64,000 nucleotides of DNA, taken from an uncultured Methanosarcinales archaeon. GTDB taxonomy: Archaea; Nanobdellota; Nanobdellia; Woesearchaeales; GW2011-AR9. The notes beneath the pieces were generated by a model. That model was not told the DNA's origin. It searched no databases and was given only the letters and a program-made list of their open reading frames with translations. Shown here in pieces: positions 759 through 61,887 of this stretch. Made by a program: the position numbers and the translations under genes. Location: NCBI GenBank assembly GCA_964343575.1, contig CAYFJV010000001.1:224705-288704 (forward strand), in the 5' to 3' direction. Every line of letters begins with the position of its first letter. Position 1 is the first letter of the stretch.

Positions 759-2066
759 ATGGTTGTAGAAGGCTTAGCGCTGCTTGATGAGAAGGAGATC
801 TCATATCTTAAGTTTCGTTGTATAAGAGAAGGTACTTGGGGCAGCTATGAAAAACTAGATTTTGGGCGTTTTAGAATTAATAGAAGTTTAGAAGCAAGTA
901 TTGGCATGGGTAGCGAAGTCCAAGTAAGTTGCACTCTTTCTCAGGCATCAGAGGGAGATCTCGAGGATCTTGTTGATGCTGTTGCCCTACATCTAGGGAA
1001 AGAATACGCTCGAATGCTAACTCCTACAAGAGTTGAAGCAGGTTATAGTGGAGGTCCACGAGGAGATGGTATGCACCTACGAGGAGACCCCTTATTTGAA
1101 GTTGTGAAGGGTGTTGTTGAAAGGGCGAAAGGAAGGCACAGGCAGAGAGGTACCAGCAGCAGCCTTGTTGACCAACTGGTTGATGTAGGGATCCCAGAGG
1201 AGGTGCTCGTTGGAAACGAGGGACTTTGGGAATTGCTTGCTAAAATTGATAGAAATACTTTGCCAAGCTACAACGCAACCTACTTTGTAAGAGACAAAAG
1301 AGGAGCGCAGTGGCTTTTGAAAGTCACAAGAGATCATGGAAAAGCAAAACTTGCTGCAGGTGCAAACTATCATCTTGCGCAAGAAGGTTTAGATTTTATT
1401 GTTCCGGGAATGACTCCAGAAGCGCTTGTTGGAAATGGGTATTCTCTTCTTCTTCAAAAAAGGGTGATGGACACAAGGACAAGATCACTTGACTATTGGC
1501 TACGTACACTTGGAAAATTTCACGCGAGCGCTGGAGAAGTCTTGGAAAGAAATGGAGTTGTGGTGCCAAGAGTTATGCCCGTGCGTGATGCAGGATTAAT
1601 AGTTGATCAATGGAGAAGAACTAGAGCTGTGCATGGGCAGAGCTTTGATCTTGGAAAAATTTATGCCAGCGTTGATTATCTTCGTGATGTTAGAGGAAGA
1701 GAAAGAGGAAATACTCTTGTTATTCACAGAGATCTCAAAGCAGATAATCTTCTTGGAGCACATATGATTGATTTAGACAACATGTCTTACGGAGATCCTT
1801 GTGTTGACCTTGCTTTACTTTTCTTCAATTATGGGGTTCCTGAAAATGGTTGGGCAAGAGGTGTTCAACTTTATCTTGATGGGAAAGGATTTGTTGGTGA
1901 TCGTCTTGCTGAAACTAGAGCTCTCGTTTTTGGCGTTAAGATGGCAGCACCTTATGTCATTGCTAAAGAGATTGCAGGCTCTTCTGCTCGAAGAATGACT
2001 GAGGAAGGGGCAAGAAGAAATGCTCGTTACGGTAGGCAGCTAGGAGAATTAGAACTTGCTGCTTAA
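759..2066 (+). CDS. APH/choline-kinase-like phosphotransferase with unknown N-terminal region
   Basis: WLLK, VIHRDLKADN, IDLD and GDPCVDLA motifs in the C-terminal half. Confidence 0.75.
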   Translation: MVVEGLALLDEKEISYLKFRCIREGTWGSYEKLDFGRFRINRSLEASIGMGSEVQVSCTLSQASEGDLEDLVDAVALHLGKEYARMLTPTRVEAGYSGGPRGDGMHLRGDPLFEVVKGVVERAKGRHRQRGTSSSLVDQLVDVGIPEEVLVGNEGLWELLAKIDRNTLPSYNATYFVRDKRGAQWLLKVTRDHGKAKLAAGANYHLAQEGLDFIVPGMTPEALVGNGYSLLLQKRVMDTRTRSLDYWLRTLGKFHASAGEVLERNGVVVPRVMPVRDAGLIVDQWRRTRAVHGQSFDLGKIYASVDYLRDVRGRERGNTLVIHRDLKADNLLGAHMIDLDNMSYGDPCVDLALLFFNYGVPENGWARGVQLYLDGKGFVGDRLAETRALVFGVKMAAPYVIAKEIAGSSARRMTEEGARRNARYGRQLGELELAA

Positions 2067-2933
2067 GCTCATTATTCTCGAATTAAGGTGTAAAAATCTT
2101 TGCATGACATGGTAGTAATGGATAGAAGAAGGATTTTTAGAGAGTTTTTTTATTTGAGTGGGGGAAAATTCTTCTCTCATCTCTTGACGATGCTTGTTCC
2201 AAAGCTGACTTGCTTTTGAAAAATCTTTTTTGAGAAAAGAGTTATAGGTTTCCTCAAAGCGTGCTTCTAGTTTTGGAAGAAAACTGTTCTTTTGTTTTTC
2301 ACTATTGTTTTGCTGAGCTAACTTGAAGAAATCTGCAGAGAGCTTTTCTAACTGTGTGACTAAGTCATAGTAATCATAAGAGTGTTCTTTACCATACTTT
2401 GTGATGTGTATTGCCCTAAGACAATGATCTCTTATTTTTTTTCCGTTGTTGAAGATAAGTTGAAGATCTTTGAGATTTGTTTTTTTTTCTTTGCTCTCAG
2501 TTATGATTACTTGGATGACCTGAAAGAGTTTGATTATGAGGTTTTCAATCTCCTTTTCATCACTTTGCAGAAAGCAACGGATTCTTATGGTATGTTTTCC
2601 TTGATTCACGATCTCTAAGCCAGTGAAAGAGTTTACCACTTCCATTACCGTTTGTAAAGCGTAGCCTTTTTTGAAGGTAAGTTGGATATCGTTATAGCCT
2701 GCCTTGTAGCTTGAAGAGATAATACTTCTTAATTGTGATTTGCTAACTTTCTTTTCGAAAGTTATCTTTTTCCCTTTTTTATGGTTGCTTTCTCTTGCTT
2801 TGATTTGCAAGGTGTTGTCTTGTTCTTCAATAAAAACGTCATCTCCTACTTTGAGGTTGTGCGTCCTCACCCATTTGATAGGGAGAAAGATGGTGTTTCC
2901 TCCGAGGCCCTGTTTGATGATTTTTCTGCGCAT
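2049..2933 (-). CDS. AbrB/SpoVT-domain plus PhoU-like helical transcription regulator
   Basis: N-terminal RKIIKQG...TIFLPIKWVRTHNLKVGDDV (AbrB-like), SYKAGY motif and helical C-terminus, as in archaeal phosphate-uptake-regulator-type proteins. Confidence 0.8.
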   Translation of the reverse strand: MRRKIIKQGLGGNTIFLPIKWVRTHNLKVGDDVFIEEQDNTLQIKARESNHKKGKKITFEKKVSKSQLRSIISSSYKAGYNDIQLTFKKGYALQTVMEVVNSFTGLEIVNQGKHTIRIRCFLQSDEKEIENLIIKLFQVIQVIITESKEKKTNLKDLQLIFNNGKKIRDHCLRAIHITKYGKEHSYDYYDLVTQLEKLSADFFKLAQQNNSEKQKNSFLPKLEARFEETYNSFLKKDFSKASQLWNKHRQEMREEFSPTQIKKLSKNPSSIHYYHVMQRFLHLNSRIMSLSSKF

Positions 2934-2973
2934 GACCGTTTGTTTTTCTCATTTCTTTAAAAATACTTCTAAG

Positions 2974-3013
2974 ATTAATATTAATAATATCAATCACTCA
3001 TTTAATTTTTCTA
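2974..3013 (+). repeat. Intergenic direct repeat, copy 1
   Basis: ATTAATATTAATAATATCAATCA is an exact 23-mer shared with 4420-4442; 36/40 identity over the extended unit. Confidence 0.85.
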
Positions 3014-3092
3014 GACGGCTTCTCCAAAAAGAAATTTTTCTTCCAAGAAGAAATCAGAGATGTAAAACAGAAATAAGTATTAAGGTAAGAAA

Positions 3093-4349
3093 ATGAATGA
3101 TAATTATAAAAGAATAAGAGAAGAGCTTATTGCTTCTCTCCCAAACTATGAAAATCCTGGTCCTGATTTCGCTCAGACCATCTATCTTTGGCCAACAGCG
3201 GTTTGTCCAATTGGTTGCGACCATTGTAATTTTGCATCACCTGCAGTTTCTAAAGATCCAACAAGAAACCTTGTTGCCAAAAATCCAGAACGGGTATTGA
3301 GGTTTGTCAGTCAGACAGGGTGTCAAAAGCTTTTTATAGCAGGTGGAGGAGAACCCATGGTTGAGGCAGGTTATGTTTATGACCTTATCAAACGGGTAGA
3401 GACTTCTAGTCTTAAAGAAATTGAGTTGATCACAAGCGCCTTCTTTGGAAAAAGCATAAAGAAATGTGAGGAGGTCCTTGACTCTTTACTAAAAGCAATC
3501 CAAGATAGGGGAGACGACGTTACTCTTACTTTGCGTCTAAGTGTTGATCTCTTTCATCGAGAAAAGATTAGTTTGCTGCCTATAACACACTTATTGGAAC
3601 TCATCCAGCTTCCAAAATATTCTCAAATAAGAGTGTACATCCGCTCAGTCTTACTTGAAAATGATCTCACCATTAAAGATCTTGCTACATCTCTTGGTGC
3701 CTCCTTAGTTAAAGTCGATGATTACCTTGAAAAGATGGAGCTTCCAAACGGAAGGGAAGTGATTGTTTATTATAAAAATCTTATCATCGATGGACGTATG
3801 GAATGGGAAAAGGTTGAAAAGTTGGAGTATAAGCCAGGAGAGAAAAACAAGGCAAGTGTGTTTAAATCCCGTTTCTTAAACAAAGATGGAAAACATATCC
3901 CTGCAAGGACATATAATGGTCCTGTCGTTGAATTTCTTGATGGAGTTGCACTTTCCCTTGAACATGACTGCACAGTTAAAATTTTAGAAGGGACCTCTCC
4001 AGATAGAATACTCTCTCTTCTAGACTATGATTTTAAGGAGTGCATGGAGTACATGTACAAAGATCCACTCACCATCTTCCTGATTGAAGAAGGCCCTCAA
4101 AGACTTGCAGAATTAGTTTCTGAGTTTGATCCAAAAGCAGTGGAAATAACAGATAATACAAATCAGCTCTATTACATTGCCGATAGAATTCTCTCTACTC
4201 CTCTCAAGAGGCTAGTTACGACACTTAAAGTTTTAGAATACCACTTGACCACAGGGAGAATAAGCATCAAAGATAAAACAGAAATCAACAAACTCATCAA
4301 AAAATATCTCTCAAAAGAACAAGTTGTAGAACTTAAGCTTGTTTCTTAA
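3093..4349 (+). CDS. Radical SAM protein of unknown function
   Basis: CPIGCDHC (CX3CX2C), GGGEP and LSVDLFH motifs; no SPASM cysteines seen. Confidence 0.85.
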   Translation: MNDNYKRIREELIASLPNYENPGPDFAQTIYLWPTAVCPIGCDHCNFASPAVSKDPTRNLVAKNPERVLRFVSQTGCQKLFIAGGGEPMVEAGYVYDLIKRVETSSLKEIELITSAFFGKSIKKCEEVLDSLLKAIQDRGDDVTLTLRLSVDLFHREKISLLPITHLLELIQLPKYSQIRVYIRSVLLENDLTIKDLATSLGASLVKVDDYLEKMELPNGREVIVYYKNLIIDGRMEWEKVEKLEYKPGEKNKASVFKSRFLNKDGKHIPARTYNGPVVEFLDGVALSLEHDCTVKILEGTSPDRILSLLDYDFKECMEYMYKDPLTIFLIEEGPQRLAELVSEFDPKAVEITDNTNQLYYIADRILSTPLKRLVTTLKVLEYHLTTGRISIKDKTEINKLIKKYLSKEQVVELKLVS

Positions 4350-4419
4350 CCTTTACTTTTTTCTTTTTTGCGCGTAATCCATAATTTCTTTATTTTGGTA
4401 AGTTTAGAAAACTTTCTTT

Positions 4420-4459
4420 ATTAATATTAATAATATCAATCATCCATTTAAGATTTCTA
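4420..4459 (+). repeat. Intergenic direct repeat, copy 2
   Basis: Matches 2974-3013. Confidence 0.85.
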
Positions 4460-4505
4460 CCTAGCTGATCTTGTTAGGGGATTGTAAGGGTGTTGTTTTT
4501 GCAAA

Positions 4506-5438
4506 ATGAGACAACTAACTGGGAACTTAGAAAGAAAACCAAGCCTTGCTGTTGGTGATATTGTTTACATCACTGATGAAGAGGATTCCGATCATGGAAA
4601 ACTCTTCCTTTGTAATGTATTTCACGAAAGACCAAGAGAAGCTTGTCCCGCCTATGGTTTTCTTGAAGTTACTGGAGAAGGAAGTTCTGAGAAGTACAGG
4701 GCAGGAGTTAGGGAGATTGTTGTAGCTGAAGATGATCTTGCAGAACATGTAAAACCTATAAGTTTTCTTTCTACTTACCATCATGGGGGAGAAAGAATTT
4801 CCTATGAGAGAGCCCTTCACATGCTTGATCGTTTGGATGCGCATAAAAGATGGATAATTGAAGCACATGAACTCGGGGTTGATGCGCATTACAGAGGAAG
4901 AGAGATGGGCAACAGTGATCTGCATCTTTCTGAGCACTTTAATGGTTTTGAAGGATCTAAAAGAGCAGAGGGAACCATTCCTATATCTCAACTTGGTTCA
5001 AGTTGTACTTTACGCTATTTTCTTCGTGATGAAAGGTTTATGCGCACGAAGAGAGATAGAGAGCTTCCTGTTTCAATTGAAGCGCGAGGTCTAGCTCCAC
5101 ACCATTATCTTGGTATTGATCTGGAAGTTGAACTTCGTGGAGGGGAAGTACTTGGAACGGAGCATGTTAGAAGGATAAAAAGAGCTTATGAAGCTGTTGG
5201 TTTAGCCATTAGTGTTAATCTTTGTGCTCGGGCAAGTATTCTTCATGACCTTTCATTTCCTCACCCACGAAGTAGAAATGGGGTGAGTGTTAGATTAGCA
5301 AAAGAGGGCGATAATTTTGTTTCTCACAGGACTCTTGGTGATGCACAAAGGACACTCCTTGAAAGGCTAAAAAGGGTTGAGTTAAAGAAGGTAAAAATTA
5401 CAAGCGTTACTTTAGAAGAAATTCGAAGGGATTGGTGA
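4506..5438 (+). CDS. Hypothetical protein (ORFan-like)
   Basis: 310-aa ORF, first of three overlapping + strand ORFs; no family recognised. Confidence 0.7.
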   Translation: MRQLTGNLERKPSLAVGDIVYITDEEDSDHGKLFLCNVFHERPREACPAYGFLEVTGEGSSEKYRAGVREIVVAEDDLAEHVKPISFLSTYHHGGERISYERALHMLDRLDAHKRWIIEAHELGVDAHYRGREMGNSDLHLSEHFNGFEGSKRAEGTIPISQLGSSCTLRYFLRDERFMRTKRDRELPVSIEARGLAPHHYLGIDLEVELRGGEVLGTEHVRRIKRAYEAVGLAISVNLCARASILHDLSFPHPRSRNGVSVRLAKEGDNFVSHRTLGDAQRTLLERLKRVELKKVKITSVTLEEIRRDW

Positions 5439-7213
5439 TAGGAGTGGGAGATATCATCCGCCATTCTTTCACTGGAACACTGCGAAGTCTTGCTTGTGAG
5501 ACATCCAGTGAAGAGTTTTCAAAACTTTTTCCAAGAAGAATTGGGGAAAGACCAGAGCAAACAATAGAAGGACTCGTTGAAACTCTTGCAGAAAGAGAAG
5601 ATCCTTCTCTACTGATTGAGATGTTTGCTCATTTTTCTAGAGAAGGAGGAAAAGGAAGATTTGAATTTGATCTTTGGCCTCGCTTGTTTAGAGATTTTGA
5701 CCTTCAAAGAGAAACCTGCGCTGCAATTAGGGCTTGCGAAGGAGATAGAAAAAGAGAGAAAATTCTTTTCAGAGAAGTGCTAAGAATGCTTTACTCTGAG
5801 CGAAGAATGTTCAACTACAAACAAGATAATGACGAACCCCATGGGTATCGCTTAGGACCAAAATCAGAATGGACCCAAGGAGGAGTTTGGGCAGATGCAA
5901 GACATAGCCCTCCAAGTGAGAGAGCAGCTCATCTTATGCGCACAGTCAAATTCTTTCAAAGTAATGAAGCGCAAAAGCTCATGTCTACTTATGATTCAGG
6001 AAGATCACTTGATGCGGTTGTTGCTTGCGCTGTTGAATGGGGAGGAAGTATCTCTCAGAATCATCAAGAGAGGAATATTCCTGTAACTGTTGCGCAAGCA
6101 TTAGGGGGAGAAGCAGTTGTCTCTCTTCTCACCAGACTTAGCTCAGAGGGAAAAGATCCAACCAATCCCGCCTTTTACTTAGGAGAAGTGGCGGCTCGTT
6201 TTGGTGATGAAAGAAGAAGAGAAGCAGTAGAGTACAGTGCTGAACTTGCTCAAGCTTATCTTGAGGTTGATAAAGAAAGGAAGCGGAAGGGATATCAAGG
6301 ATCTGCCATGGACCTTCTCTTGTTTTATCTTGCAACCGCAGTTGTTCCAATAGGTAACCCTTACAGTGATGCCTATGATGCTGAATACGCGGCTGCACAC
6401 CCAAGTGCAAGACAACTTCACTTTGGAGCAAGACCTTCTGGACAAAGAGATATTGTTCCTGCACAGCAGAGGATTGAAGAAGGGTATTTTAGAAACCTTC
6501 TTTCTCTTCGAGGAGAAGTTGTTCATCTGAGTGCTTTGCACATGCCAGATCCTGCATCTTTAGAGACACTTGTAGTAGGAGTAGTTAACCTTAGTGGCCC
6601 ACTTGGAGCAAATCCTCAAGAAACGAGAAACTTTGCAAAGTTATTAGTACATTATGGAAATAGTCCTTGTGTAGATGTTGTTTCTGAACTTATCTGTGAG
6701 GAAGCAAGAGCACGTTGGAGCGAGAAGGAAGCCATTGCTGAGATCTATGAATTTCTTGGACATCCCGATGTTATGAGGGTTGCTCACCTTGATGATCCTG
6801 CTGTCGTAGATACAATGTTGACGGATAGACTTGCTCAAGATCCGCGAACTGCGATGGGATATTCTGGTATGAAAGAAGAGATTGAAAGAGACAGAAGAAG
6901 GAAAGAACATGCACTGAGAGGAAGAATTCTTTGCGAGACCTTTCCAGGTCAGGCTAGAAGATATATGGAGATGCGAAAAGATGAACTCTTAAGAGTTTTC
7001 TCACAAGAAATTTATGGAGATGCCCTTGCAAGATACGAAGAGGAGAGAGGCTTGTTACTTGAAGAAGAGAGAGCAATGCTCTTCGATGCCAAAAGAAGTA
7101 GGCTACTTCATGCACTTGGTATGAAGGTGTGTAGAGATCCAGATAATCTTAGAAGTTATATTACTAGAACTAGAGATCTTTTAGAAAGAAGTGGAGGGAC
7201 TTCTTATGGTTAG
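5432..7213 (+). CDS. Hypothetical protein, R/E-rich and helical
   Basis: 593-aa ORF overlapping both neighbours; no family recognised. Confidence 0.75.
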   Translation: MVIGVGDIIRHSFTGTLRSLACETSSEEFSKLFPRRIGERPEQTIEGLVETLAEREDPSLLIEMFAHFSREGGKGRFEFDLWPRLFRDFDLQRETCAAIRACEGDRKREKILFREVLRMLYSERRMFNYKQDNDEPHGYRLGPKSEWTQGGVWADARHSPPSERAAHLMRTVKFFQSNEAQKLMSTYDSGRSLDAVVACAVEWGGSISQNHQERNIPVTVAQALGGEAVVSLLTRLSSEGKDPTNPAFYLGEVAARFGDERRREAVEYSAELAQAYLEVDKERKRKGYQGSAMDLLLFYLATAVVPIGNPYSDAYDAEYAAAHPSARQLHFGARPSGQRDIVPAQQRIEEGYFRNLLSLRGEVVHLSALHMPDPASLETLVVGVVNLSGPLGANPQETRNFAKLLVHYGNSPCVDVVSELICEEARARWSEKEAIAEIYEFLGHPDVMRVAHLDDPAVVDTMLTDRLAQDPRTAMGYSGMKEEIERDRRRKEHALRGRILCETFPGQARRYMEMRKDELLRVFSQEIYGDALARYEEERGLLLEEERAMLFDAKRSRLLHALGMKVCRDPDNLRSYITRTRDLLERSGGTSYG

Positions 7214-52315: not shown

Positions 52316-52393
52316 GTCCTTTCATTTCTTTGGATACTTTAAAAAACATTACTTGACAACAGGTTTATATAAGGAATACTGTTGAGAAAGACC

Positions 52394-54151
52394 ATGGAAT
52401 TTAAGCAACTTGCGGAGCTTTACGCGCAGCTAGAAAAAACCAGTTCCGGTAATGAAATGCGAGAGATTTTAGCTGCATTTTTGAAAGAAGTAGCTGTCTC
52501 TGAAATTAGTTTGTTAAGCCACTTATGTATTGGTAAATTTGGTCCAGATTATGAAAACACCGTTCTTGGTCTAGCTGAAAAATCACTTCTCAAGGCAGTT
52601 GCAAAGGCTGCAGGTCGAAGTGATAAAGAAGTTCGTGAGCTTGCTAAGAAAAAAGGAGACCTAGGTGAGGCTGCAGCGCAAGTATTCTTGAAAAAACCAG
52701 TAACTCTTGTTCCCGTTGGAAATTTGGCTGTTGCTGAGCTGGATTCTAAGGTACGCAAGATTATAAGTATTGAAGGGAAGGGAGCACTTGCTGAGAAAGA
52801 AAAAATTGTTATGAGTATGTTTCAAAAATGTAGTTCTTTAGAGGCGAAATATTTGTCTCGGCTTTTATTGGGAACCATGCGTATTGGTGTTGCCGATATG
52901 ACTGTACTTGATGCGCTTGCTATCGCTTTTACTGGAGAGAAAAAGAATAAGAAAGAGATTGAGAAAGCCTACAACATTAATCCTGATCTTGGTGCTATCT
53001 CTGCACTTGTTGCTGAGAAGGGACTTGCGGGACTTGCTGAGGTGAAGATCGTTGTTGGACACCCAATTAAAGTAATGCTTGCACAGCGTGTCAAAAAGAT
53101 TAGTGAGATTACTGAAAAGATTCCTGGGGAAGTTGCGGTCGAAACCAAGTATGATGGCGAGCGTGTGCAGGTGCACAAGAGCAAAGAAGGGGTTGTGAAG
53201 TTGTATTCACGTCGGATGGAAGATATTACTTATCAGTATCCTGATCTTGTTGCGTATGTGCTCTCTGAGTTGAAGGGTGGAGTTAAGGATATTATCTTTG
53301 AAGGGGAAATAATTCCCTTGGGTAAGAAAGGAGAACATTTGCATTTTCAAACTCTTATGAAGCGTAAGCGTAAGACAGAGATTGAAAGGTATGCTAAAGA
53401 AATTCCAGTTGTACTTTATTGTTTTGATATTTTGTATCTTAATGGGAAGAGTTGGATGGAGAAAGATTATCCAAGTCGCTGTAAAAAGCTTGATTCAGTA
53501 TTGTCCCATGATCATCTACGTATGAGCGAGCGTATCTTTACTTCTGATATTGATAAGATTGAGGCTTTCTTTAACAATTGTATTGAAAAGGGCTATGAAG
53601 GCATTATGGCTAAATCCCAGTCTGCTGGAGATAAAGATGGAAAAGGAAAGTCCATCTATAAGGCAGGTGCTCGTGATTGGTCTTGGATCAAATGGAAAAA
53701 AGAATATATGGGAGATATCGTTGACACTTACGATTTAGTTGTTATTGGAGCATTTTATGGGAAAGGAAAACGCAGCGGGAGTTATGGGTCACTTCTTTGC
53801 GCAAGCTATAATGCAGAAGAAGATGTCTTTGAGAGTGTCTCGAAGTTGGGAACTGGTTTGACCGATAAAACACTTGCTGAGTTACCTTTGTTGCTTGATG
53901 AGCACAAGGTCGAGAAAAAACCAGCCCGGGTTGTAGTCAAAAGGGAGATGTATCCTGATGTGTGGTTTGAACCTTTTCTGGTTGTTGAAGTACTTGCTGC
54001 TGAAATCACCCGTGGGGGACTTCATTGTTGCGCTGCGATCGGGGGGAAAGGTTTGGCACTTCGTTTTCCACGTTTTATTCAGATTCGTGAAAATAAAAGT
54101 CCTGAGCAGGCAACTACTTCGGTTGAACTTGAGCAGATGTATGGGAAGTAG
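52394..54151 (+). CDS. lig: ATP-dependent DNA ligase
   Basis: KYDGERVQ, EGE, EGIMAK, WIKWK and LRFPRF motifs. Confidence 0.98.
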   Translation: MEFKQLAELYAQLEKTSSGNEMREILAAFLKEVAVSEISLLSHLCIGKFGPDYENTVLGLAEKSLLKAVAKAAGRSDKEVRELAKKKGDLGEAAAQVFLKKPVTLVPVGNLAVAELDSKVRKIISIEGKGALAEKEKIVMSMFQKCSSLEAKYLSRLLLGTMRIGVADMTVLDALAIAFTGEKKNKKEIEKAYNINPDLGAISALVAEKGLAGLAEVKIVVGHPIKVMLAQRVKKISEITEKIPGEVAVETKYDGERVQVHKSKEGVVKLYSRRMEDITYQYPDLVAYVLSELKGGVKDIIFEGEIIPLGKKGEHLHFQTLMKRKRKTEIERYAKEIPVVLYCFDILYLNGKSWMEKDYPSRCKKLDSVLSHDHLRMSERIFTSDIDKIEAFFNNCIEKGYEGIMAKSQSAGDKDGKGKSIYKAGARDWSWIKWKKEYMGDIVDTYDLVVIGAFYGKGKRSGSYGSLLCASYNAEEDVFESVSKLGTGLTDKTLAELPLLLDEHKVEKKPARVVVKREMYPDVWFEPFLVVEVLAAEITRGGLHCCAAIGGKGLALRFPRFIQIRENKSPEQATTSVELEQMYGK

Positions 54152-54203: not shown

Positions 54204-54584
54204 TTACCAAACGCAAGCTCCATTGGAGCAACCACCTTCTGTCCCATTATCATTTTCAAGACAGTTATGAGTTTGGACCATAGCTTGTTCCCCTTCATAG
54301 ACATAACCACAGGAGTATTCTACAAGTGTCTTATGATCAATGCAGTAATCTGTTACTTGATGAGTCTGCCCGTTAAGAGTCTCAACAACCATATCTCCTC
54401 TTTCTAAAAAGTTCACACCCCAATCGTTGTCAAAGCAAGATGCAACCTCTACTGGACCCCTCTGCGCTGCTAAAACGACAAAAGAGCAAAGAGCTATCAA
54501 AAGAACTGTCGCCAAGAGAAGATGTTTTTTCTCAGACATCCTCCCAAGAGTAATTCCTTTTTTTCCGAACATTTTCCATTTCAT
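54204..54584 (-). CDS. Small secreted Cys-rich protein (C.D.D.G...DYC...L.E.SC repeat)
   Basis: Signal/TM; one repeat unit shared with 54761-55867; GGAGG SD. Confidence 0.75.
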   Translation of the reverse strand: MKWKMFGKKGITLGRMSEKKHLLLATVLLIALCSFVVLAAQRGPVEVASCFDNDWGVNFLERGDMVVETLNGQTHQVTDYCIDHKTLVEYSCGYVYEGEQAMVQTHNCLENDNGTEGGCSNGACVW

Positions 54585-54686
54585 AATTTTTCCTCCGATT
54601 TAGCAGCCAATCAGAAAAGACCTGTCTTTTGAGAGGAGGCTTCTTCCCCTTTGAAAGCTGCAAATCTCAGATCACTCTTGCAGGGA

Positions 54687-54741
54687 GCTATTTAATCGCT
54701 TGGAGAAACTAAACGGAACTAAACGGAACTGAGCCGGAACT
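54687..54741 (-). promoter_or_regulatory. TATA box plus GGAAC/GTTCC box cluster C
   Basis: TTAAATA on the minus strand; GAAACT 54705 and GGAACT 54715, 54725, 54736. Confidence 0.7.
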
Positions 54742-54760
54742 TGAGAGTATTAAGAAGTAA

Positions 54761-55867
54761 CTAAGAGAAGAGATGTCTCATTAATTGGGTTATTTTCTGC
54801 CAAAAAGAAAGTTCAGGCACTTCAAGAATACAGCTATTGTTTTGGCAAATGTTTGATTGACAAGAAAGGTCATGCTCGCAAATAGCTCCACTTTCTAACT
54901 GTAAAACTAATTCCAGACTTTCTGCGCAGTAAAAACCCTGCTCCTCAACCATAACCCTAGATCCAACTGGGATGCAGCCTCCATTAACAAAACAACCATC
55001 AAGGCAAGAATGGGGGGCAAATGGAATCTCCTTGCTTGCTTCAAAGGTTTGTGAACCTAAAGCCAAAGTCACCTCTTCACCAGTTATTTCATAATCTGGA
55101 AGCTCTAACTGTTCTTCCTCCCCGAGAAGGCTTTTCCCACTTCCCTTACTCACTCCCCCACCTGCATTTTCTTCTAGAAGTAACGCGTAGTCTTCTGACA
55201 CTTCTTCTGTAGAAGAGTTCTCCCCACCCAAAAAAGTTTCATTGTAAGTTTCAGTCTCAGTTTCATTGATTTGAATTAAGCAAGCTCCAGCAGAACAACC
55301 CCAAAGACAAGAGATTTGCTTGTATTTTTCCTCTTCACAATTATACTGATAGAGGTTGAAGGCGCCATCGCAATAATCTGCAAGAAGGGAACCATTACTT
55401 AGATTGCTCTCTCCATAAAAATAATGGTCGTCCGTAGGGTCGGTATCACTACATTCTTGTACACAAGCACCATCAAAACAAGAAAGGTTCTCTCCACAAG
55501 TAAATACTCCCCAACCATAGGTGCCATTTGAACAACTAAATTCTACCAACTGGCCATCTCCCATACAATAATCTGTGCTACTGTTAGTCAAGTTACCACC
55601 CACATAAAGACTGCTTGTTCCTTGTAAGCTTAGATCTTCTCCTCCATCCGTCTCCGAGCAGAAGAGTTCTGCATCATCTTGAGGGAGATCTAATTGATAG
55701 AACTCTTCTGTGCAATAGCTAAGAAGACCTTCTTCATAACGAGTTAAGTTCTCTCCCAGAGCTAATTGTTCTACAAAGGTACAATTATATGCAGATGCCA
55801 TCAATGAAAAAAGAACTAAACAAAGAATTGTGACAAGTACAATTACTTCTTGTTTGCTTCTACTCAT
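54761..55867 (-). CDS. Secreted Cys-rich protein: two C..TD repeats, 8-Cys domain, amphipathic tail
   Basis: Signal peptide, GAGGTG SD, overlaps the regulator stop; ends SFWQKITQLMRHLFS. Confidence 0.8.
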   Translation of the reverse strand: MSRSKQEVIVLVTILCLVLFSLMASAYNCTFVEQLALGENLTRYEEGLLSYCTEEFYQLDLPQDDAELFCSETDGGEDLSLQGTSSLYVGGNLTNSSTDYCMGDGQLVEFSCSNGTYGWGVFTCGENLSCFDGACVQECSDTDPTDDHYFYGESNLSNGSLLADYCDGAFNLYQYNCEEEKYKQISCLWGCSAGACLIQINETETETYNETFLGGENSSTEEVSEDYALLLEENAGGGVSKGSGKSLLGEEEQLELPDYEITGEEVTLALGSQTFEASKEIPFAPHSCLDGCFVNGGCIPVGSRVMVEEQGFYCAESLELVLQLESGAICEHDLSCQSNICQNNSCILEVPELSFWQKITQLMRHLFS

Positions 55868-56888
55868 TTTCTCCACCTCTCTCTAAAAACCAGTTTGAAA
55901 ATTTTATCTTCCTTAACTTTCCATCCCTTATGGTCTTTACAATGTTTTTCTGCTCGAGAGTCTGTAAGTTTCTGAAAAGAGAACTCTTAGAAAGACCACT
56001 TCTATACCTTAAGGAAGTAAAAGAAAGCTCTTTTTTCTCCTCAAGAAGGGCAGTTACTATCTTCTTTTCATTCTCTCTAAGAGTCATTACAATATCATGA
56101 GCCCTTCTCCCAAGAGAGAAATGTCCTACGTCTAAGTCTTTTGAAATTTTTTTAGTGCCAAAATAGTGAGTTTTGGTTTTGCTAAACCTCCTCTTTAGAG
56201 TAAGGTAGACTTTCTGAGGTTTCAAGAATAAATAGAATAAAAAAATAAAGGATATAGAGAGTAAAGGGAGGAAGAAAGATGTTCCTCCTTCAATGACAGA
56301 GTGCTCTAATTTTAGATCCAAGAAAAGTTCTTCTCCTTGAGAAACAGTTAATTGCTCAAAGGCTAACCTATCTGATGAAAGCGCATAAACAGTGCAGCTC
56401 CCTTGCGGGACAAATTCTACTGTGAAAGAACCAAACTGGTCTGTTAATAATTCCTGCTCCTCTTGTGAATTACAATTTATTTTTACCTCGGCTCCAGAGA
56501 TTGCATTTCCCCTCTCATCTTGCACAAAACCTTGGGCACTCGCCCCAGGAGAAAGATAAATTACATGAAGAAGACTCTCTTTTGCCTTTTCAATTTCCAC
56601 CTTAGTGTAAAAATCATTTCCAGGAGTAGTTGGTTGATCAACGAATAGTTCTAGATGATTTACCCCTTCTTCTAAAAAAATCTTTAGTTTCTCTCCTTCT
56701 TCGATAAAATATCTTCTCTCATAGTCCTCTGCCTTGAGAGTTACATAAATGGAATCTAACTCTTCTAAAGTTATGCTATCAACCAAAGGGAGAACCACGT
56801 TCGCATCGGCAAAAACAAGAATAGGTAAAAAAGTACAGAAGAAAAGGGTCATCAAAACTTTTAACCATGCCACTCTTGCAGGGGACAA
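55860..56888 (-). CDS. Membrane-spanning transcription regulator 2 (beta ectodomain - TM - winged helix)
   Basis: Signal peptide, carboxypeptidase-regulatory-like G.V.D..GN.I..A...TDQFG.F, TM, then TLRENEKKIV...GLSKSSLFRNL..LE.KNIV. Start uncertain (56888, 56873 or 56852). Confidence 0.85.
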   Translation of the reverse strand: MSPARVAWLKVLMTLFFCTFLPILVFADANVVLPLVDSITLEELDSIYVTLKAEDYERRYFIEEGEKLKIFLEEGVNHLELFVDQPTTPGNDFYTKVEIEKAKESLLHVIYLSPGASAQGFVQDERGNAISGAEVKINCNSQEEQELLTDQFGSFTVEFVPQGSCTVYALSSDRLAFEQLTVSQGEELFLDLKLEHSVIEGGTSFFLPLLSISFIFLFYLFLKPQKVYLTLKRRFSKTKTHYFGTKKISKDLDVGHFSLGRRAHDIVMTLRENEKKIVTALLEEKKELSFTSLRYRSGLSKSSLFRNLQTLEQKNIVKTIRDGKLRKIKFSNWFLERGGENE

Positions 56889-56949
56889 AAAAAGGAATTA
56901 TTTATAATATCTGCTGTTTTTTAAAAAAAAAATCAGGAGGAGGGCAAAT

Positions 56950-57873
56950 TTATCGTAAAATTGTCTCTTTCTGAGGGTGAAAAAAATTTTTTAGCCACTC
57001 CAAAGTTTCAGATAGACCCTTCTTCTCTTTCACAACTTCAATGATACTTGCATCGCTGATTTCTAACTTTGCACAAACACCGCCCTGACAGGAATTACTT
57101 AAACATTCATAGTCAGAACTACAAGAAGTTTCTCCCAGTTTTTGTGTGCTAAGCGTTAAAGAACTTGAACAAAATTTTGGACTTCCTTCTATAATCCTAG
57201 ACCCAACTGGTAAACAAACCCCCTCAACAGTACAACCAGAGCAGGCTTCTTCTCTTGGTTCAGTAATCTCTAAAGATTCTTCAAAAGGTTCTTCGGCAGG
57301 AGTTGGTACAGTAACTTGTTCTTCAATGAAAGGAAGAGAATCTTCTGATTCCTTGTCTTCTTGTTCTGAAGTGCTTTTTGGAGGTGTACCTTGCTTTGGT
57401 TCAAAACCCCCACCAGTAAATGCGGTAACACTTGCTTGGTTTGGATCAAATCCGGAGGAGAAATCAACTAGTAAAGTGAAATCTTCCCCAGCGATTGTTA
57501 TTGCAAAAGGATAGTTGAGAAACTCAGTAAGATCACCAACGTAGGAAACAGAAAGATCTTGAACGGGGGCGCTAGAAAGTTGGAATGCCTGTAATTGTAA
57601 ATAGATAAAATCATCTCTTAATGTAAACTGTTCTAAAGAATAAGCCCTTAGCTCATCATCTTCTCCAAAAAAGGCCAAGGTAGTTCCAAGCGACCATTGC
57701 ACCTCTTCAAAACAGGAATCTTGGTTAACTAGTGAACCAGCTTCAGTTACATCTACATCGCAGATATCTCCTGCTAAGACGCCCACACTAGTAATACTTA
57801 TGAAGAACAAAGCTACAAGAAGGACGAAGCTTGTTCTTTCTTTCTTCCTTTGTGTTTTTGATTTATGTATCAT
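56950..57873 (-). CDS. Secreted protein with C-terminal 8-Cys domain and amphipathic tail
   Basis: ATGA overlap with the regulator 1 stop; CSGC...CLPVGSR...FC...Q...C..DYECLSNSC.GGVC. Confidence 0.8.
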   Translation of the reverse strand: MIHKSKTQRKKERTSFVLLVALFFISITSVGVLAGDICDVDVTEAGSLVNQDSCFEEVQWSLGTTLAFFGEDDELRAYSLEQFTLRDDFIYLQLQAFQLSSAPVQDLSVSYVGDLTEFLNYPFAITIAGEDFTLLVDFSSGFDPNQASVTAFTGGGFEPKQGTPPKSTSEQEDKESEDSLPFIEEQVTVPTPAEEPFEESLEITEPREEACSGCTVEGVCLPVGSRIIEGSPKFCSSSLTLSTQKLGETSCSSDYECLSNSCQGGVCAKLEISDASIIEVVKEKKGLSETLEWLKNFFHPQKETILR

Positions 57874-58901
57874 TTTTCTAAAAACCATTCAGTTAGTTGT
57901 ATTCTTTTAACTCTTCCTTCAAATCGAGTTGATATAATATTTTTTTCCTCTAAAGATTTTATGTTTCTAAACAAAGCTCCTTTTGAGATGCCTGTTTTGT
58001 AATGAATCTTTGAGAGGTGAATTGGCTCTTTTTGTTCTATAAGGAAAAGCACTATCTTTTTCTCGTTAGCCCTCAGAGTTCTTAAGATATCTTTTCCTCT
58101 TTGAGCCAAGGGTCTCTCTTGATGATTCTTTTTCTTTTCTTTATTATGTTCTGTATCTTTTAATTCCAAGCCCACTTTACTATTTTTCTTATGAGGCTTG
58201 TTCTCCTTCTCTAGCTTATTGCTTTTTTTCCTTTGGTAAAGGATAGTTCCTGCTACAATTATTCCGAAGGGCAAGAGCAAAAAGAGAGAGAGAGGGTTTT
58301 TCTCTTGAGGGATTACTCTTGTTCCTTCCAATTTTACTTCAATATTTTTTTCTTCTCCTTGCTTTGTTTCAAAGTCTACAACTCCTATCTCATTACCAAA
58401 AGCAGCAAAAACTCTGCAGTTTCCTTCAGGAACAGCTTCCAAGGAAAAAGCGCCAAATTGATCTGTTTTTTCAGGGAAGTTTAGGTCGAATGGCCCAGAG
58501 CAGGAAAAATCTAACTCTGCGCTTGCAATATTGTTCTCTAACTCATCTTTAACAAAACCTTGAAGGCTTGCCACTGGATAAAGATAGGCAAAAAGTGCTT
58601 TATGTTCTGCGCTGTTTATCTGTATTGAGAGCTCCCCGTAATAATCTGCTCCGGGAGTGTTACTTTGATCCACAAAAAGAGCAATATCTTGGTTCTTAGG
58701 ATCTACTTGGATGCCTAGCTCTTTATCTGCCTCCACATAGTACTGCGCCTGAGCACCATTTGTATCAACTTTTACAAAAACATCTGAGATTTGTTCTTTT
58801 GTAAAAGCATCAAGTAAGGTGATGCTTAGCTCAGTTTGATCCTGAGCGAGTACTAATGGAAGGCAGAAGAGGAAGACAATGATGAGCACAATTTTATTCA
58901 T
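57870..58901 (-). CDS. Membrane-spanning transcription regulator 1 (beta ectodomain - TM - winged helix)
   Basis: Paralog of 55860-56888 (LFVDQ..TPG.D.Y, QGFV.DE, TDQFG, TLRANEKKIV, GISKGALFRNI..LE.KNII, WFLE). Confidence 0.87.
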   Translation of the reverse strand: MNKIVLIIVFLFCLPLVLAQDQTELSITLLDAFTKEQISDVFVKVDTNGAQAQYYVEADKELGIQVDPKNQDIALFVDQSNTPGADYYGELSIQINSAEHKALFAYLYPVASLQGFVKDELENNIASAELDFSCSGPFDLNFPEKTDQFGAFSLEAVPEGNCRVFAAFGNEIGVVDFETKQGEEKNIEVKLEGTRVIPQEKNPLSLFLLLPFGIIVAGTILYQRKKSNKLEKENKPHKKNSKVGLELKDTEHNKEKKKNHQERPLAQRGKDILRTLRANEKKIVLFLIEQKEPIHLSKIHYKTGISKGALFRNIKSLEEKNIISTRFEGRVKRIQLTEWFLEK

Positions 58902-58995
58902 AGTTCTTCTTCTGCTTTTCTTTAACTTAATTAACTTTGCGAGTAGATTTACTCATAAATAAGCAAATTTGAGAGTCTGATAAAGCAAATGAAAT

Positions 58996-59097
58996 GTCAG
59001 GAAGGAAGGCGGGAAACCAAAAGAGGCGTTGTGTTTTTATGCAACAGGGGGTGTGGGAAAGGATTCCCGCCAAGCCTTCCATTAACATGTGTTTGTT
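58996..59097 (-). ncRNA. Candidate structured RNA (sRNA or long leader); strand inferred from promoter
   Basis: GC-rich nested stems 59000-59005/59075-59080, 59008-59015/59064-59071 and 59028-59031/59042-59045, downstream of GGAAC-box promoter D. Confidence 0.45.
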
Positions 59098-59110
59098 GAA
59101 GTTTTCTAAA

Positions 59111-59150
59111 GCGGAACGATACTTAATTATTGGGCGGAACGATGGTGAAT
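59111..59150 (-). promoter_or_regulatory. TATA-like element plus GGAAC/GTTCC box cluster D
   Basis: GCGGAACGAT direct repeat at 59111 and 59134 flanking ACTTAATTAT; TGAAT at 59146. Confidence 0.65.
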
Positions 59151-59191
59151 AAAGGAAAAAGTAATAAATAAGCTATTATCAGTGGTGAATC

Positions 59192-59446
59192 ATGAGTTCA
59201 GGCAGGGAGCGAGAAAGACTATGGGTCTACAAAGGGAGGACAGAACTTCCTGAGGGAACTGTTTTCTTGCTAGAGAGAGATTTTCTTGAACAAGCAGGGG
59301 CTCTGAGAGAAGTTGGTGTCCCACCAAGAGATAGTGTAGGAACAGGTGCTTGTTTACTTTATGCTAGCCAAGAAGAGATCAAAGCAGGAAGGAGATCCCT
59401 AGGTAGAGGAGTGAGAACTTTTTATTTCACGGGAGAAGAGGAGTGA
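59192..59446 (+). CDS. Small hypothetical protein
   Basis: 84-aa R/G/E-rich ORF; GGTGA upstream. Confidence 0.55.
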   Translation: MSSGRERERLWVYKGRTELPEGTVFLLERDFLEQAGALREVGVPPRDSVGTGACLLYASQEEIKAGRRSLGRGVRTFYFTGEEE

Positions 59447-59514
59447 TCTTTCCTGAGAAAAACTTGTTTCTATAAGCAGAAGCTTTTTAAAGCGCGCCTT
59501 CGGATCTCTTTTAA

Positions 59515-61887
59515 ATGGTTGAGTTGATTATCACCGAGAAACCAAGCTCGGCAAGAAAGGTTGCTGCTGCTCTTGCAGATGGGAAACCAATTCAAAAAAA
59601 GGGGAGTAAACAAGCTTCTTACTTTGAGTTAACTCATAACGGGAAAGACATTTTCGTTACCTCAGCAGTTGGCCACCTTTATGGTTTAGCTGAAATTGGT
59701 AATTCAAACTGGGGATATCCTGTTTTTGAGATTCAATGGCAAGCATCAAACAAAGGATCAAAGGAGCTTAAGTATGTTGGTGAGTATATTAAAACCATTG
59801 AAATGCTTTCTAAGAAAGCAGATGAGTTCACTATTGCATGCGACTATGATGTAGAAGGAGAAGTTATTGGTTTGAATGTTGTACGTTTTGCTTGTAAACA
59901 AAAAGATGCAAACCGAATGAAGTTTTCTACCTTAACTAAAGGTGATTTAGTGAAGTCTTATGAGAACAAGATGAAGCACCTTGACTGGGGACAAGCTTAC
60001 GCAGGTGAGACTCGCCACAAGTTAGATTGGTTCTATGGAATTAATCTGAGTAGGGCACTTACTGGAGCGGTAAAAGCTGCTGGAAGTTTTAAAGTGATGA
60101 GTGCTGGTCGAGTGCAGGGACCTGCTTTGAAATTACTTGTTGATCGTGAGCGTCAAATTCAATCGTTCAAACCAGAGCCTTTCTGGCAGATTAGTTTGAA
60201 TGGAAAGTATGCTGGACCTGGAAGTGGTGGTTCTGGGGCAGGAGTGGAGGCTTGGCACAAAGCAGATAAGATCTTTGATAAGCAAGAAGCGGAGCGCGCA
60301 TTTACTGCTGCATCTTCGGCTAAGGAAGCAAAGGTAACTGAAATCAAACGTGCAAAGAGAAATCAGCGTCCGCCAACACCATTTAACTTAACTGATTTGC
60401 AATCAGAATCTTATGGACAGTTTAAAATCACACCAAAAGAAACACTTGCCTTAGCGCAGAGTTTGTATTTAGCTGGAGTTACTTCTTATCCACGTACTTC
60501 TTCACAGCAGCTTGATCCTAAATTAGGTTTTAAGAAAATCTTGCAGGATCTCAGTCGAAATCCACAGTACGAAATGCTTGCAAAGAAGTTGCTTGGCAAA
60601 GGGAGTTTGAAACCAAACAATGGGAAGAAAAGTGACCCTGCACACCCGGCAATTTATCCTACTGGACAGGTTCCTTCTGGACTTAAACCACGTGAACAAA
60701 AAGTCTATGATTTAATTGTTAAACGATTTATGGCAACCTTTGCTGACGCGGCAGTTCGTGAGACTATGACTGTTTCTCTTGATGCGAACGGCGAGCCTTT
60801 TATCGCAAAAGGGACACGAACTATTGAAGAGAATTGGCATGTGTTCTACAAGCCTTATGTACGACTTGAGGAAGTAAGTCTACCAGATATGAAAGAAGGT
60901 GGTGTTGTGGGTTCACTTAAGGTTGAGAAGCATGATAAAGAAACACAGCCACCAAAGCGTTACAATCAATCAAGTATCATTAAGGAACTTGAGAAGCGTA
61001 ACTTGGGGACTAAGGCAACTCGAGCAGACATTCTTGATCGTTTGTTTAAGCGAGGTTATGTTGAAGGAGTAAAAATTACTGTTTCTAAATTTGGTATGGA
61101 GACCATTGGTATCTTAGAGAAGTTTGCTCCAACCATTATTGATGAGAAGTTGACTAGTGATTTTGAAGAATCTATGGAAAAGATTCGCCAAGGTAAAGAG
61201 AAAGAAGAGAAGGTTCTTGATAAGGCAAAGAAATTTTTGATGGGACTTCTTGGTGATTTTAAGAAAAAAGAAGCTGAGATTGGAAAGGAGATCATTGGCT
61301 CTATTCGTGATACTCGTGATGCAGCAAACTATATGGGAAAATGTCCTGTGTGTAAAGAAGGTCGTTTAATGTCTCGAATGGGAAAGTTTGGAAGGTTTAT
61401 TGCTTGCGACAAATATCCTGATTGTAAAACCACTTTTAATGTTCCAAAATCTGGGAAGTTAGTGTTTACCGGGCAAACTGATGAAGAAGGCTATTCTATT
61501 TTAGAGATTGGTACAGGTCGGCGTAAGACTCAGTTTAGTTTGAAGTCACAGATGGCTACCCGTGGAGGTGAAGCTGTTGCTAAGAAGGACGTTGAGGAGG
61601 AGAAGAAGTATCCTGAGCAAAATATGACTTGCCCTACTTGTGGGAAGGGTAAGATGGTACTTCGTAAGAGCGTGTATGGAGAGTTCTTAGGCTGTAACAA
61701 TTATCCAAAGTGTCAGACAATGATGCGTATTGTAGAAGGTAAGGTTGATGTAGACAAACCGATTGTTCGTGATCCTTCTAAGAAAAAGAGTGTGAAACGT
61801 AAGAAAGCTGTAAAGAAAAAGAAAACAGTGAAAAGAAAAACAACTAAGAGGAAGGTTGCTAAAAAGAAGGCGACTGCGAAAAAATGA
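59515..61887 (+). CDS. topA: DNA topoisomerase I (type IA)
   Basis: TEKPS, VGHL, DYDVEGE, SAGRVQ, SYPRT, AHPAI, GTKATR, zinc ribbons and Lys-rich tail. Confidence 0.98.
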   Translation: MVELIITEKPSSARKVAAALADGKPIQKKGSKQASYFELTHNGKDIFVTSAVGHLYGLAEIGNSNWGYPVFEIQWQASNKGSKELKYVGEYIKTIEMLSKKADEFTIACDYDVEGEVIGLNVVRFACKQKDANRMKFSTLTKGDLVKSYENKMKHLDWGQAYAGETRHKLDWFYGINLSRALTGAVKAAGSFKVMSAGRVQGPALKLLVDRERQIQSFKPEPFWQISLNGKYAGPGSGGSGAGVEAWHKADKIFDKQEAERAFTAASSAKEAKVTEIKRAKRNQRPPTPFNLTDLQSESYGQFKITPKETLALAQSLYLAGVTSYPRTSSQQLDPKLGFKKILQDLSRNPQYEMLAKKLLGKGSLKPNNGKKSDPAHPAIYPTGQVPSGLKPREQKVYDLIVKRFMATFADAAVRETMTVSLDANGEPFIAKGTRTIEENWHVFYKPYVRLEEVSLPDMKEGGVVGSLKVEKHDKETQPPKRYNQSSIIKELEKRNLGTKATRADILDRLFKRGYVEGVKITVSKFGMETIGILEKFAPTIIDEKLTSDFEESMEKIRQGKEKEEKVLDKAKKFLMGLLGDFKKKEAEIGKEIIGSIRDTRDAANYMGKCPVCKEGRLMSRMGKFGRFIACDKYPDCKTTFNVPKSGKLVFTGQTDEEGYSILEIGTGRRKTQFSLKSQMATRGGEAVAKKDVEEEKKYPEQNMTCPTCGKGKMVLRKSVYGEFLGCNNYPKCQTMMRIVEGKVDVDKPIVRDPSKKKSVKRKKAVKKKKTVKRKTTKRKVAKKKATAKK

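Follow-up and report, generated by a model that had tools for sequence, protein, structure and literature searches.

The window analysed here, a 64,000-nt stretch of contig CAYFJV010000001.1 from an uncultured woesearchaeal archaeon (G000, a genome of 1.21 Mb in 6 contigs), contains between its DNA ligase gene (52382-54151, + strand) and its topoisomerase I gene (59515-61887, +) a locus of five minus-strand genes, two of which, A1 and A2, encode paralogous membrane proteins that end in a domain of the winged helix-turn-helix (wHTH) type. Judged from sequence and predicted structure, the A proteins are probably transmembrane transcription regulators that control the promoters of adjacent surface-protein genes by reading short direct repeats, denoted GTTCC boxes in the following. 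A1 (57870-58901, 343 aa) comprises a signal peptide, two beta-sandwich ectodomains, a transmembrane (TM) helix, a Lys-rich linker and the C-terminal wHTH. A2 (55860-56873), for which a GTG start was adopted (the open reading frame (ORF) tool gives TTG at 56888), aligns with A1 over its whole length (32% identity, 342 columns, E=1e-57). Each regulator gene runs into a gene for a secreted protein. The end of A1 and the start of B1 (56950-57873, 307 aa) overlap by 4 nt within ATGA, the B1 ATG lying inside, and A2 and B2 (54761-55867) overlap by 8 nt within ATGAGTAG. B1 is built of an N-terminal domain of unassigned family, an acidic linker, an 8-Cys module and an amphipathic helix, and B2 of two N-terminal Cys-rich repeats, a linker, the 8-Cys module and a tail. 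The fifth gene, C (54204-54584), encodes a small secreted or anchored protein of 126 aa with one Cys-rich domain (residues ~45-125), of the type repeated in B2. An initial annotation of this DNA had described the two paralogues as signal peptide, beta ectodomain, TM helix, basic linker and wHTH, each overlapping its partner gene by 4 or 8 bp; the overlaps were confirmed on the sequence, and the architecture by the alignment of A1 with A2, by Pfam and by an AlphaFold2 model of A1. Comparisons were made with 151 genomes of the same order and with a phylum sample of 201 genomes.

The assignment is carried mainly by the position of the boxes relative to A-family genes. A strict three-box pattern, GTTCC-N4-6-GTTCC-N17-19-GTTCC, was searched genome-wide in the 151 genomes of the order, with the reversed pattern as control, and gave 17 matches. 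Thirteen of these begin 0-80 nt past an A-family stop codon, 3 of them behind long forms like A1 and 10 behind a shorter sister form (10 of the 12 matches fetched beyond the long-form ones). One further match is found upstream of an A gene, at 465 nt, and another 2 kb downstream of a short form; in G151 no family member was present on the 3.6 kb fetched, and the match in G133 has no TATA-like stretch. In the other 16 of the 17, an AT-rich, TATA-like stretch was recognised by eye in the spacer. In G074, G089, G026, G162, G211, G288 and G264 the same element follows immediately on the A stop, where the promoter of the next gene lies, and G300:C28 has it with the variant box CGTCCCG. One helical turn separates box 1 from box 2, the pair stops 5-7 nt short of the TATA element, and box 3 lies past it; where the full set of three occurs (G211, G288, G074, G089 and G026), 18 nt of spacer separate the GTTCC of box 2 from that of box 3. 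The downstream gene in G074 has its ATG 21 nt after the TATA element, so its transcript would be leaderless. No other DNA-binding gene recurs at the A loci examined. Because A is the sole recurring DNA-binding gene, and because the element sits at its 3' end, A is taken as the reader of the boxes, and the GTTCC repeats are very probably operators of A proteins.

A second line of evidence is the agreement between box type and recognition helix. A second group of loci (G020, G016, G157, G300:C13 and G301) has no GTTCC boxes and carries GGGCA-type repeats after the A stop instead. The recognition helix reads [SAP]K..L[FHS]R at 10/10 GTTCC-type loci and IPRT[ST][LM]AR[IV]L at 5/5 GGGCA-type loci, and G300 encodes both helix kinds, each adjoining its own box type. 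Moreover, the A2 helix GLSKSSLFRNL is identical to that of its G211 homologue, and the G211 operator consists of three copies of GTTCCGC, the heptamer also present at the upstream promoter of the present locus (P1, see below). The link between wHTH domain and GTTCC repeats, which the initial annotation had put forward, is thus supported by the placement of 13/17 elements and by a box type that tracks the helix type. As an aside, the intergenic regions between A and B in the second group (L022 6800-6920, L024 7640-7760, L049, L063 3768-3870 and L066) have (T)TGGGCA(C/T/G) repeats immediately behind the A stop, with a CTTCCCACTCAA-like element shortly ahead of the TATA box.

The domain structure of A was examined with Pfam and with the AlphaFold2 model (alignment of 100 family members; predicted local distance difference test, pLDDT, 87.6). 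A2 matched CarboxypepD_reg (34.4 bits, cut-off 32.3) and HTH_IclR (24.0 bits, cut-off 22), and scored 15.5 bits with MarR (PF01047; cut-off 24.6). A1 scored lower, slightly short of the cut-offs, its MarR match reaching 23.2 bits. In Pfam terms the winged helix is of IclR/MarR/TrmB type. The A1 model places a signal-peptide helix at residues 2-17, beta-sandwich domains at 23-93 and 101-190, the membrane helix at 203-227, a disordered Lys-rich linker at 230-259 (pLDDT <50) and the wHTH, with four short helices and a two-strand wing, at 267-341. The TM segment is hydrophobic in 20/20 aligned family members and is followed by a Lys/Arg-rich stretch, the ectodomain pair Cys134/Cys162 is invariant in the family alignment, and the winged helix is the most conserved region of the family. 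As the Lys-rich stretch follows the membrane helix and the Cys pair precedes it, the positive-inside rule would place the winged helix in the cytoplasm. Residues 261-343 superpose best on TFIIE-alpha (5gpy_A, Z 11.9, root-mean-square deviation 2.9, 82 aa), followed by MarR of M. mazei (3s2w_A, Z 10.8; MarR proteins generally Z 10-11), an HpaR-DNA complex (7el3_B, Z 10.6) and RosR (6qfd_B, Z 10.3). By sequence, the domain matched the wHTH of a Csa3-type regulator (8.4e-8) and, more weakly, NolR and LrpA. A defence or phage origin of A was considered and rejected, as PADLOC matched the wHTH part of CARF/Csa3 profiles only. On the outer side, the fold of the second ectodomain matches that of the transthyretin-like domain in carboxypeptidases N and D (Z 10.4-10.8), and the whole ectodomain resembles the tandem stalk domains of Gram-positive pilins (SpaA pilin 5j4m, 2.9e-7), with a weaker match to SlaB (8qox_B, 1.6e-4). 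A predicted DNA-binding domain and a predicted TM region, the features that define transmembrane transcription regulators as a class, are both present in A.

The same architecture could serve a latent factor: a signal at the ectodomain would have the protein cut within or close to the membrane, and the soluble wHTH set free in this way would bind the GTTCC boxes, a case of regulated proteolysis such as membrane-bound factors undergo in other systems. The long disordered linker between TM helix and wHTH is in line with such a course of events, and the link between boxes and A genes fits it equally well. However, the loci examined have no conserved protease gene, the operator right after the regulator stop in 13/17 cases suits cis action from the membrane better than a diffusing factor, and direct repeats suit subunits held in parallel. 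Release by cleavage is considered unlikely, and the membrane-bound form of the regulator is preferred.

Several observations weigh against this assignment as a whole. The strict pattern is not more frequent than its reversed control (17 versus 26 matches), generic 5-mer triples in the three-box geometry are common, and the GTTC core in this geometry occurred 8 times against a simulated mean of 3.4, reported as chance level; the number of strict matches alone means nothing, and it is the placement that is telling. Recognisable boxes are missing at several A loci, e.g. L052, L053 and L055, and in the genome studied the strict pattern has 0 matches, and the overlap of A and B genes leaves no boxed promoter between them. 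On a quick tree of the family (rows with an envelope <250 aa excluded) the box and helix labels change only about twice each, so the agreement between them amounts to linked inheritance over few independent events. Furthermore, the dimerising N- and C-terminal helices of the MarR type are missing from the A1 model, and the Pfam scores are near or below the cut-offs.

Several of these points would be accommodated if the GTTCC boxes were read by another regulator, encoded elsewhere, and the wHTH of A bound other DNA, RNA or protein. The raw pattern count that does not exceed the control agrees with this option, as do the A loci without boxes, box binding by A being a prediction. Conversely, another reader would leave unexplained why 13/17 elements fall 0-80 nt after an A-family stop and why box type matches helix type even within G300, and no other DNA-binding gene recurs at the loci. 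This option is regarded as improbable, and the boxes are discussed below as candidate operators of A.

In the genome studied, GTTCCG occurs at 171 sites, and same-strand clusters of at least 2 copies within 35 nt are found at two places only, both of them intergenic regions of the locus: 54714-54740 (3 copies, spacing 10-11) and 59112-59140 (2 copies, spacing 23), both on the minus strand. The second cluster belongs to P1, with the layout ATTCACC-3-GTTCCGC-7-TTAAGTAT-1-GTTCCGC on the minus strand. One GTTCCGC box (59134-59140) lies upstream of the TATA-like element TTAAGTAT (59119-59126), which has GTTC on both sides, and the other (59111-59117) between this element and the expected start site. 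The box-to-box spacing of 23 nt equals that in G211, G074, G089, G026 and G288. A degenerate box 0, ATTCACC (59144-59150), 10 nt upstream of P1 box 1, occupies the position of box 1 in the three-box geometry elsewhere. The first cluster belongs to P2, where four tandem boxes, GTTCCGG, GTTCCGT, GTTCCGT and GTTTCTCC (54702-54740, -; spacing 11, 10 and 10), form one of only 2 same-strand GTTCC clusters of at least 3 in the genome. All four are upstream and none is downstream of a TATA-like element, ATTAAATAG (54688-54696, -), which is placed by its position 5 nt after the last box. The initial annotation had the locus bracketed by box promoters (read there as GGAAC) that drive a small Cys-rich protein and a structured RNA. 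The boxes stand, as two clusters; that they drive C and the RNA is suggested by the adjacent TATA-like elements.

A third locus of the same genome (L001, G000:C1:81000-89000, 1940-6470) carries a further pair, A3 (2510-3700) and B3 (3754-5703), and three promoters built like P1 with box variants of their own: GTTCACC in three copies; GTTCTCC and GTTCTCTC; and GTTCCAGC in two copies with GTTCGC. The boxed promoter at ~1942-1990 precedes a hairpin RNA and a 96-aa lipoprotein-like ORF, that at ~5735-5770 a 139-aa secreted Cys protein, and that at ~6260-6300 a 49-aa ORF with CxxC and CxC motifs (~6316-6465). P1 and the first of these promoters can be aligned base for base through the boxes, the TATA element and the start of the hairpin. 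Genome-wide, TTAAG[TC][AT]T occurs at 293 sites, 5 of which are flanked by GTTC on both sides, and 4/5 of these are at two A loci. The fifth site (G000:C1:539731, -) is away from any A locus and differs in look.

Downstream of P1, at 58986-59095 (-), lies a long hairpin-forming leader or small RNA with a folding energy of -32.9 kcal/mol (z -3.35; 0/200 shuffles as stable), which agrees with the structured RNA predicted beside the upstream boxes by the initial annotation. The paralogous hairpin of L001 gave z -1.07, a hairpin after a boxed promoter that G162 has upstream of A z -2.82, and four further long leaders, picked by eye, z -5.59, -6.32, -3.74 and -0.88. In the P1 and L001 hairpins the pairing is kept and the stem sequences and open frames differ, so the conserved unit would be an RNA or DNA structure and not a protein. 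The A1 start codon is preceded, at 21 nt, by a TATA-like element, which hints that a short RNA of its own may be made from P1, as the initial annotation had it. Rfam gave no match at gathering level in the window and chance-level matches only in 58850-59600; L001 and L051 gave none at E<=0.01.

Taken together, the following mechanism is proposed. A1, A2 and A3 would be single-pass transmembrane regulators with the N-terminal two-thirds outside the cell, and a flexible Lys-rich linker of 35-60 residues would carry the winged helix inside. Several winged helices would bind to GTTCC(R) direct repeats placed on either side of the TATA box in the neighbouring promoter, in most relatives with two boxes upstream of the TATA element and the third 23 nt on, between TATA and start site. 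Each A protein would control the gene adjoining its own, which in relatives is the downstream secreted surface protein. In the present genome the targets would be the small Cys-rich secreted proteins and the hairpin-forming leader RNAs, and B would be translationally coupled to A. Repression appears somewhat the better guess than activation, given the place of box 3, past the TATA box but ahead of the start site; at archaeal promoters, a protein in this position would hinder the recruitment of the polymerase. Activation through the upstream boxes has only a slightly smaller chance, compare P2 with its four upstream and no downstream boxes. Direct repeats would suit subunits held parallel by the membrane, and an operator just past the regulator stop would suit cis action, the locus being held at the membrane by co-translational insertion.

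Turning to the partner proteins, B1 and B2 can be aligned only across the C-terminal ~100 aa (35% identity, E=7e-11), where both have 8 Cys followed by an amphipathic tail (hydrophobic moment 0.57-0.73). The B1 model defines the module well (residues ~208-270, pLDDT 94-96), together with a helix at 274-298, and the N-terminal half is of low confidence. Partners with a common 8-Cys module and differing N-termini, as first described, are thereby confirmed. Neither B1 nor B2 has a Pfam match at E<=1, and hence none to the S-layer like family, outer domain (PF05124). B3, in which the 8-Cys module is joined to a DsbA/thioredoxin and an S_layer_C domain, does match PF05124 (30 bits, cut-off 23.9) and is among the 15/76 module-bearing proteins that do so. 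B homologues are labelled Candidatus Woesearchaeota or Nanoarchaeota in the sequence sources. C and the Cys-rich repeats at the N-terminus of B2 are alike (E=2e-4). The Cys-rich domain of C (~80 aa), a surface-protein building block without Pfam coverage, was found in 34/151 genomes of the order (one of them, G144, unpublished), mostly away from A and in proteins of 118-1272 aa.

The pairing of regulator and secreted partner is conserved across relatives. Outside this genome, 38 A places were counted in the order sample and checked on fetched DNA: 12 have a module gene directly downstream (for the unpublished genomes G135 and G155 the pairing is read from coordinates only), 1 directly upstream (G139), 4 are truncated by a contig end and 21 lack the module, among them G038, where the partner retains the tail only. 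G059 has three module-bearing genes in tandem downstream of A, and in G020 and G016, of other genera of the same family, both full-length A homologues examined have the module downstream. In further loci from the best matches of the phylum sample the module is downstream in 7/7, with one intervening secreted gene in 2. Altogether a module-bearing neighbour is present in 25/46 A loci with a readable flank, the three pairs of this genome included. In the rest the neighbour is mostly another large secreted protein: among the 20 module-free loci that were fetched, a different signal-peptide protein of at least 450 aa is encoded at most 400 nt downstream in 10, and 2 have a large secreted protein slightly farther away, whereas 5 have smaller secreted or membrane proteins and 3 nothing clear. 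The module-free partners (L028, L029, L043; L033, L042, L045, L046) appear to fall into classes by their C-terminal end, PPxxPE-like versus ..KPWY... A recurrent third component was considered and dropped, the small secreted proteins near three loci not being detectably alike. Upstream of A in G020 and G016 (L022 5600-5720, L024 8880-9010) an apparent intron-bearing tRNA gene was noted by eye on the opposite strand.

The module itself, which had been taken as a feature of the partners, has a far wider distribution than A. It occurs in 48/151 genomes, and of 62 places outside this genome 47 are not beside an A match; in the window, a fourth module-bearing protein of the genome (29747-30367, -) has no adjacent A gene and no GTTCC box. 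It terminates proteins with S_layer_C, CARDB, DsbA, LamG, MG2, Kazal and other domains. Because most copies lie elsewhere, the module does not mark A partners specifically, and, from these distributions, it is a module of general use at the C-terminus of the order's surface proteins. Pfam showed a weak resemblance to the EB module only (E 0.013-0.028), a profile search of the Protein Data Bank nothing under E 0.1, and a protein atlas a best score of 0.88, under the useful range. A fold search with the B1 model gave Z <4 throughout, the best match of the module being a 31-residue knottin-type peptide (Z 3.5). A complex prediction, run with no controls, for the A1 ectodomain (19-202) with the C-terminal module of B1 scored 0.00 against a mark of 0.32, a result that counts neither for nor against binding.

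The partners invite comparison with the surface-layer proteins SlaA and SlaB of Sulfolobales, which like A and B are encoded by adjacent genes and combine a membrane-anchored beta-sandwich stalk with a large secreted surface protein, although the gene order differs and the present genome has three different pairs. SlaB consists of a beta-sandwich stalk, a coiled coil and a C-terminal membrane anchor, and is not known to have a cytoplasmic DNA-binding domain; the A1 model differs in that it lacks a coiled coil and has an 80-aa cytoplasmic wHTH. That A is chiefly a structural membrane stalk which holds its secreted neighbour as SlaB holds SlaA, with an accessory, non-regulatory wHTH, is the least probable of the alternatives and very doubtful, for although the ectodomain resembles tandem beta-sandwich stalks, B3 and many module-bearing proteins carry S_layer_C, and overlaps of 4 and 8 nt are frequent for genes of complex partners, the wHTH is the best-conserved part of A, the short forms retain TM helix and wHTH as the ectodomain shrinks, boxes accompany the gene, and no SlaB-like coiled coil is seen in the model. 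The roles of stalk and regulator are, however, not mutually exclusive.

What the A proteins would sense is a matter of speculation, as is the sensing of envelope or host contact suggested by the initial annotation. In an extended form, for which the odds are low, the cassette would be a self-contained, cis-acting contact switch. The partner would dock on the A ectodomain via its Cys module or tail, its variable N-terminus would recognise differing outside ligands, e.g. a host surface, and the wHTH, made last and beside the membrane, would emerge within reach of its operator, with outputs that include small secreted Cys-rich proteins and hairpin RNAs. Such a switch, if real, would explain both the reversed domain order relative to ToxR (see below) and the strict operator position.

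With a threshold of E<=1e-3, a profile search of 1.84 billion representatives returned 1760 proteins; 618 were left at E<=1e-10, and at E<=1e-30 the family still counts 360 clusters. The best 150 matches are nearly all full length (300-430 aa), and 'uncharacterized membrane protein' is the sole label found in the sources. In the order sample 51/151 genomes have a match at E<=1e-10, full-length in 33 by our own reading of the table. In the phylum sample 34/201 genomes match at E<=1e-25, 33 of them in this order and 1, with a partial match, in the same class, so that the family appears nearly confined to the order. Its distribution is patchy: matches occur in 3/22 genomes of the same family, and two genomes of the same genus (89% and 77% complete) have none. 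On the quick tree A1, A2 and A3 cluster with the proteins of G211 and G300:C28 (support 100), so the three copies of this genome are a lineage-specific expansion. The short sister form (227-335 aa; signal peptide, one beta domain, TM helix and wHTH) matches the A profile at 1e-10 to 5e-24, is single-copy in 26/151 genomes and was not found in the genome studied. Short-form loci (L068-L079, e.g. L071 3235-3915, -) have a common look: the short A gene and a three-box promoter come first, the next gene encodes a secreted, helical protein of 300-550 aa that lacks Cys and has an RLLQLQ-like motif, and the series ends with a 62-87-aa lipoprotein-like ORF that terminates in VE[IL]GE[ML]I. Literature searches found no published description of the A family; as far as their accessible parts go, neither Makarova et al. 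2014 (PMC4158269) nor a preprint on Nanobdellota (10.64898/2026.05.13.725050) treats it.

Transmembrane transcription regulators are an established class, for which the accessible part of a census reports 1,384 members in 367/404 archaeal species, single-pass forms being the commonest at 56% (Demey et al. 2023, PMC10269533). Describing the locus as a candidate new system therefore overstates the case. The census does not seem to cover this lineage: its accessible text leaves DPANN unmentioned and says nothing of an operator, a partner or an ectodomain in a family of this kind, and the supplement files, as far as available, have no Nanoarchaeota, Woesearchae or CarboxypepD_reg entry (PMC10269533). 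The archaeal examples closest in role are ArnR and ArnR1 of Sulfolobus acidocaldarius, membrane-bound one-component regulators of archaellum and pili genes according to the accessible part of PMC6396743. Like A, they are archaeal, membrane-anchored and tied to surface-structure genes, a likeness drawn by description only, and they belong to a different lineage. ArnR has an N-terminal HTH and C-terminal membrane helices, and is not known to have a large ectodomain. Csa3-type and MarR/ArsR-type archaeal regulators resemble A in the fold and sequence profile of the DNA-binding domain; they are soluble and have a CARF or dimerising domain, whereas A has neither, and has a TM helix and an ectodomain.

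The layout of the locus had also been likened to ToxR-ToxS and TcpP-TcpH of Vibrio cholerae, with the domain order reversed, and the parallel in gene order holds. As predicted for A, these are single-pass proteins with a cytoplasmic winged helix, an outside sensor and a co-transcribed extracytoplasmic partner encoded next, and ToxR binds several direct repeats near the promoter, as described in the accessible parts of PMC10629549 and PMC13042144. A is not a homologue of these proteins. Neither A1 nor A2 matches Trans_reg_C at E<=1 in Pfam, and A is placed outside the ToxR family on account of a different type of winged helix and a domain order reversed relative to ToxR, TcpP and CadC, the DNA-binding domain being C-terminal. 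The B partner is unrelated to ToxS and TcpH, being secreted with variable domains and not a small membrane protein, and, unlike at ToxR promoters, the boxes here flank the TATA box of an archaeal promoter.

Regarding the genomic setting, the gap between the ligase and topoisomerase genes in a genome of the same genus (G001) spans 3.5 kb and is filled by unrelated genes. On this ground the A-B locus is classed, by sequence comparison, as a species-specific insert, and the gap is a hotspot for variable cargo. By eye, the G001 genes (L060, G001:C4:10700-14700) include radical-SAM, kinase-like, CYTH-like and HD-domain genes. A 12-mer, CCTGCAAGAGTG, occurs twice in the whole genome, both times on the minus strand of the locus: one copy (56871-56882) ends in the GTG taken as the putative A2 start, and the other (54673-54684) lies within the leader of C. 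The 84-aa ORF between P1 and the topoisomerase gene (59192-59446, +) is a doubtful gene; neither Pfam nor PADLOC gave a match, and a search of 25 relatives did not find it. A tRNA search of the window returned none.

To our knowledge, almost nothing is known of gene regulation in Woesearchaeota and other DPANN archaea, which cannot yet be cultured on their own and presumably make their living through contact with other cells. The A protein and its boxes offer a concrete candidate regulator-operator pair, reduced to an 80-residue domain suited to production in E. coli and a 40-bp three-box site of defined spacing around a TATA box, and the candidate operator adjoins the surface-protein genes most likely to be relevant to cell contact. 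If the assignment is correct, A would add a type-I topology, with the sensor first and the DNA-binding domain last, to the transmembrane regulators, and the strict rule that places the operator after the regulator stop would bear on how a membrane-bound factor finds its DNA.

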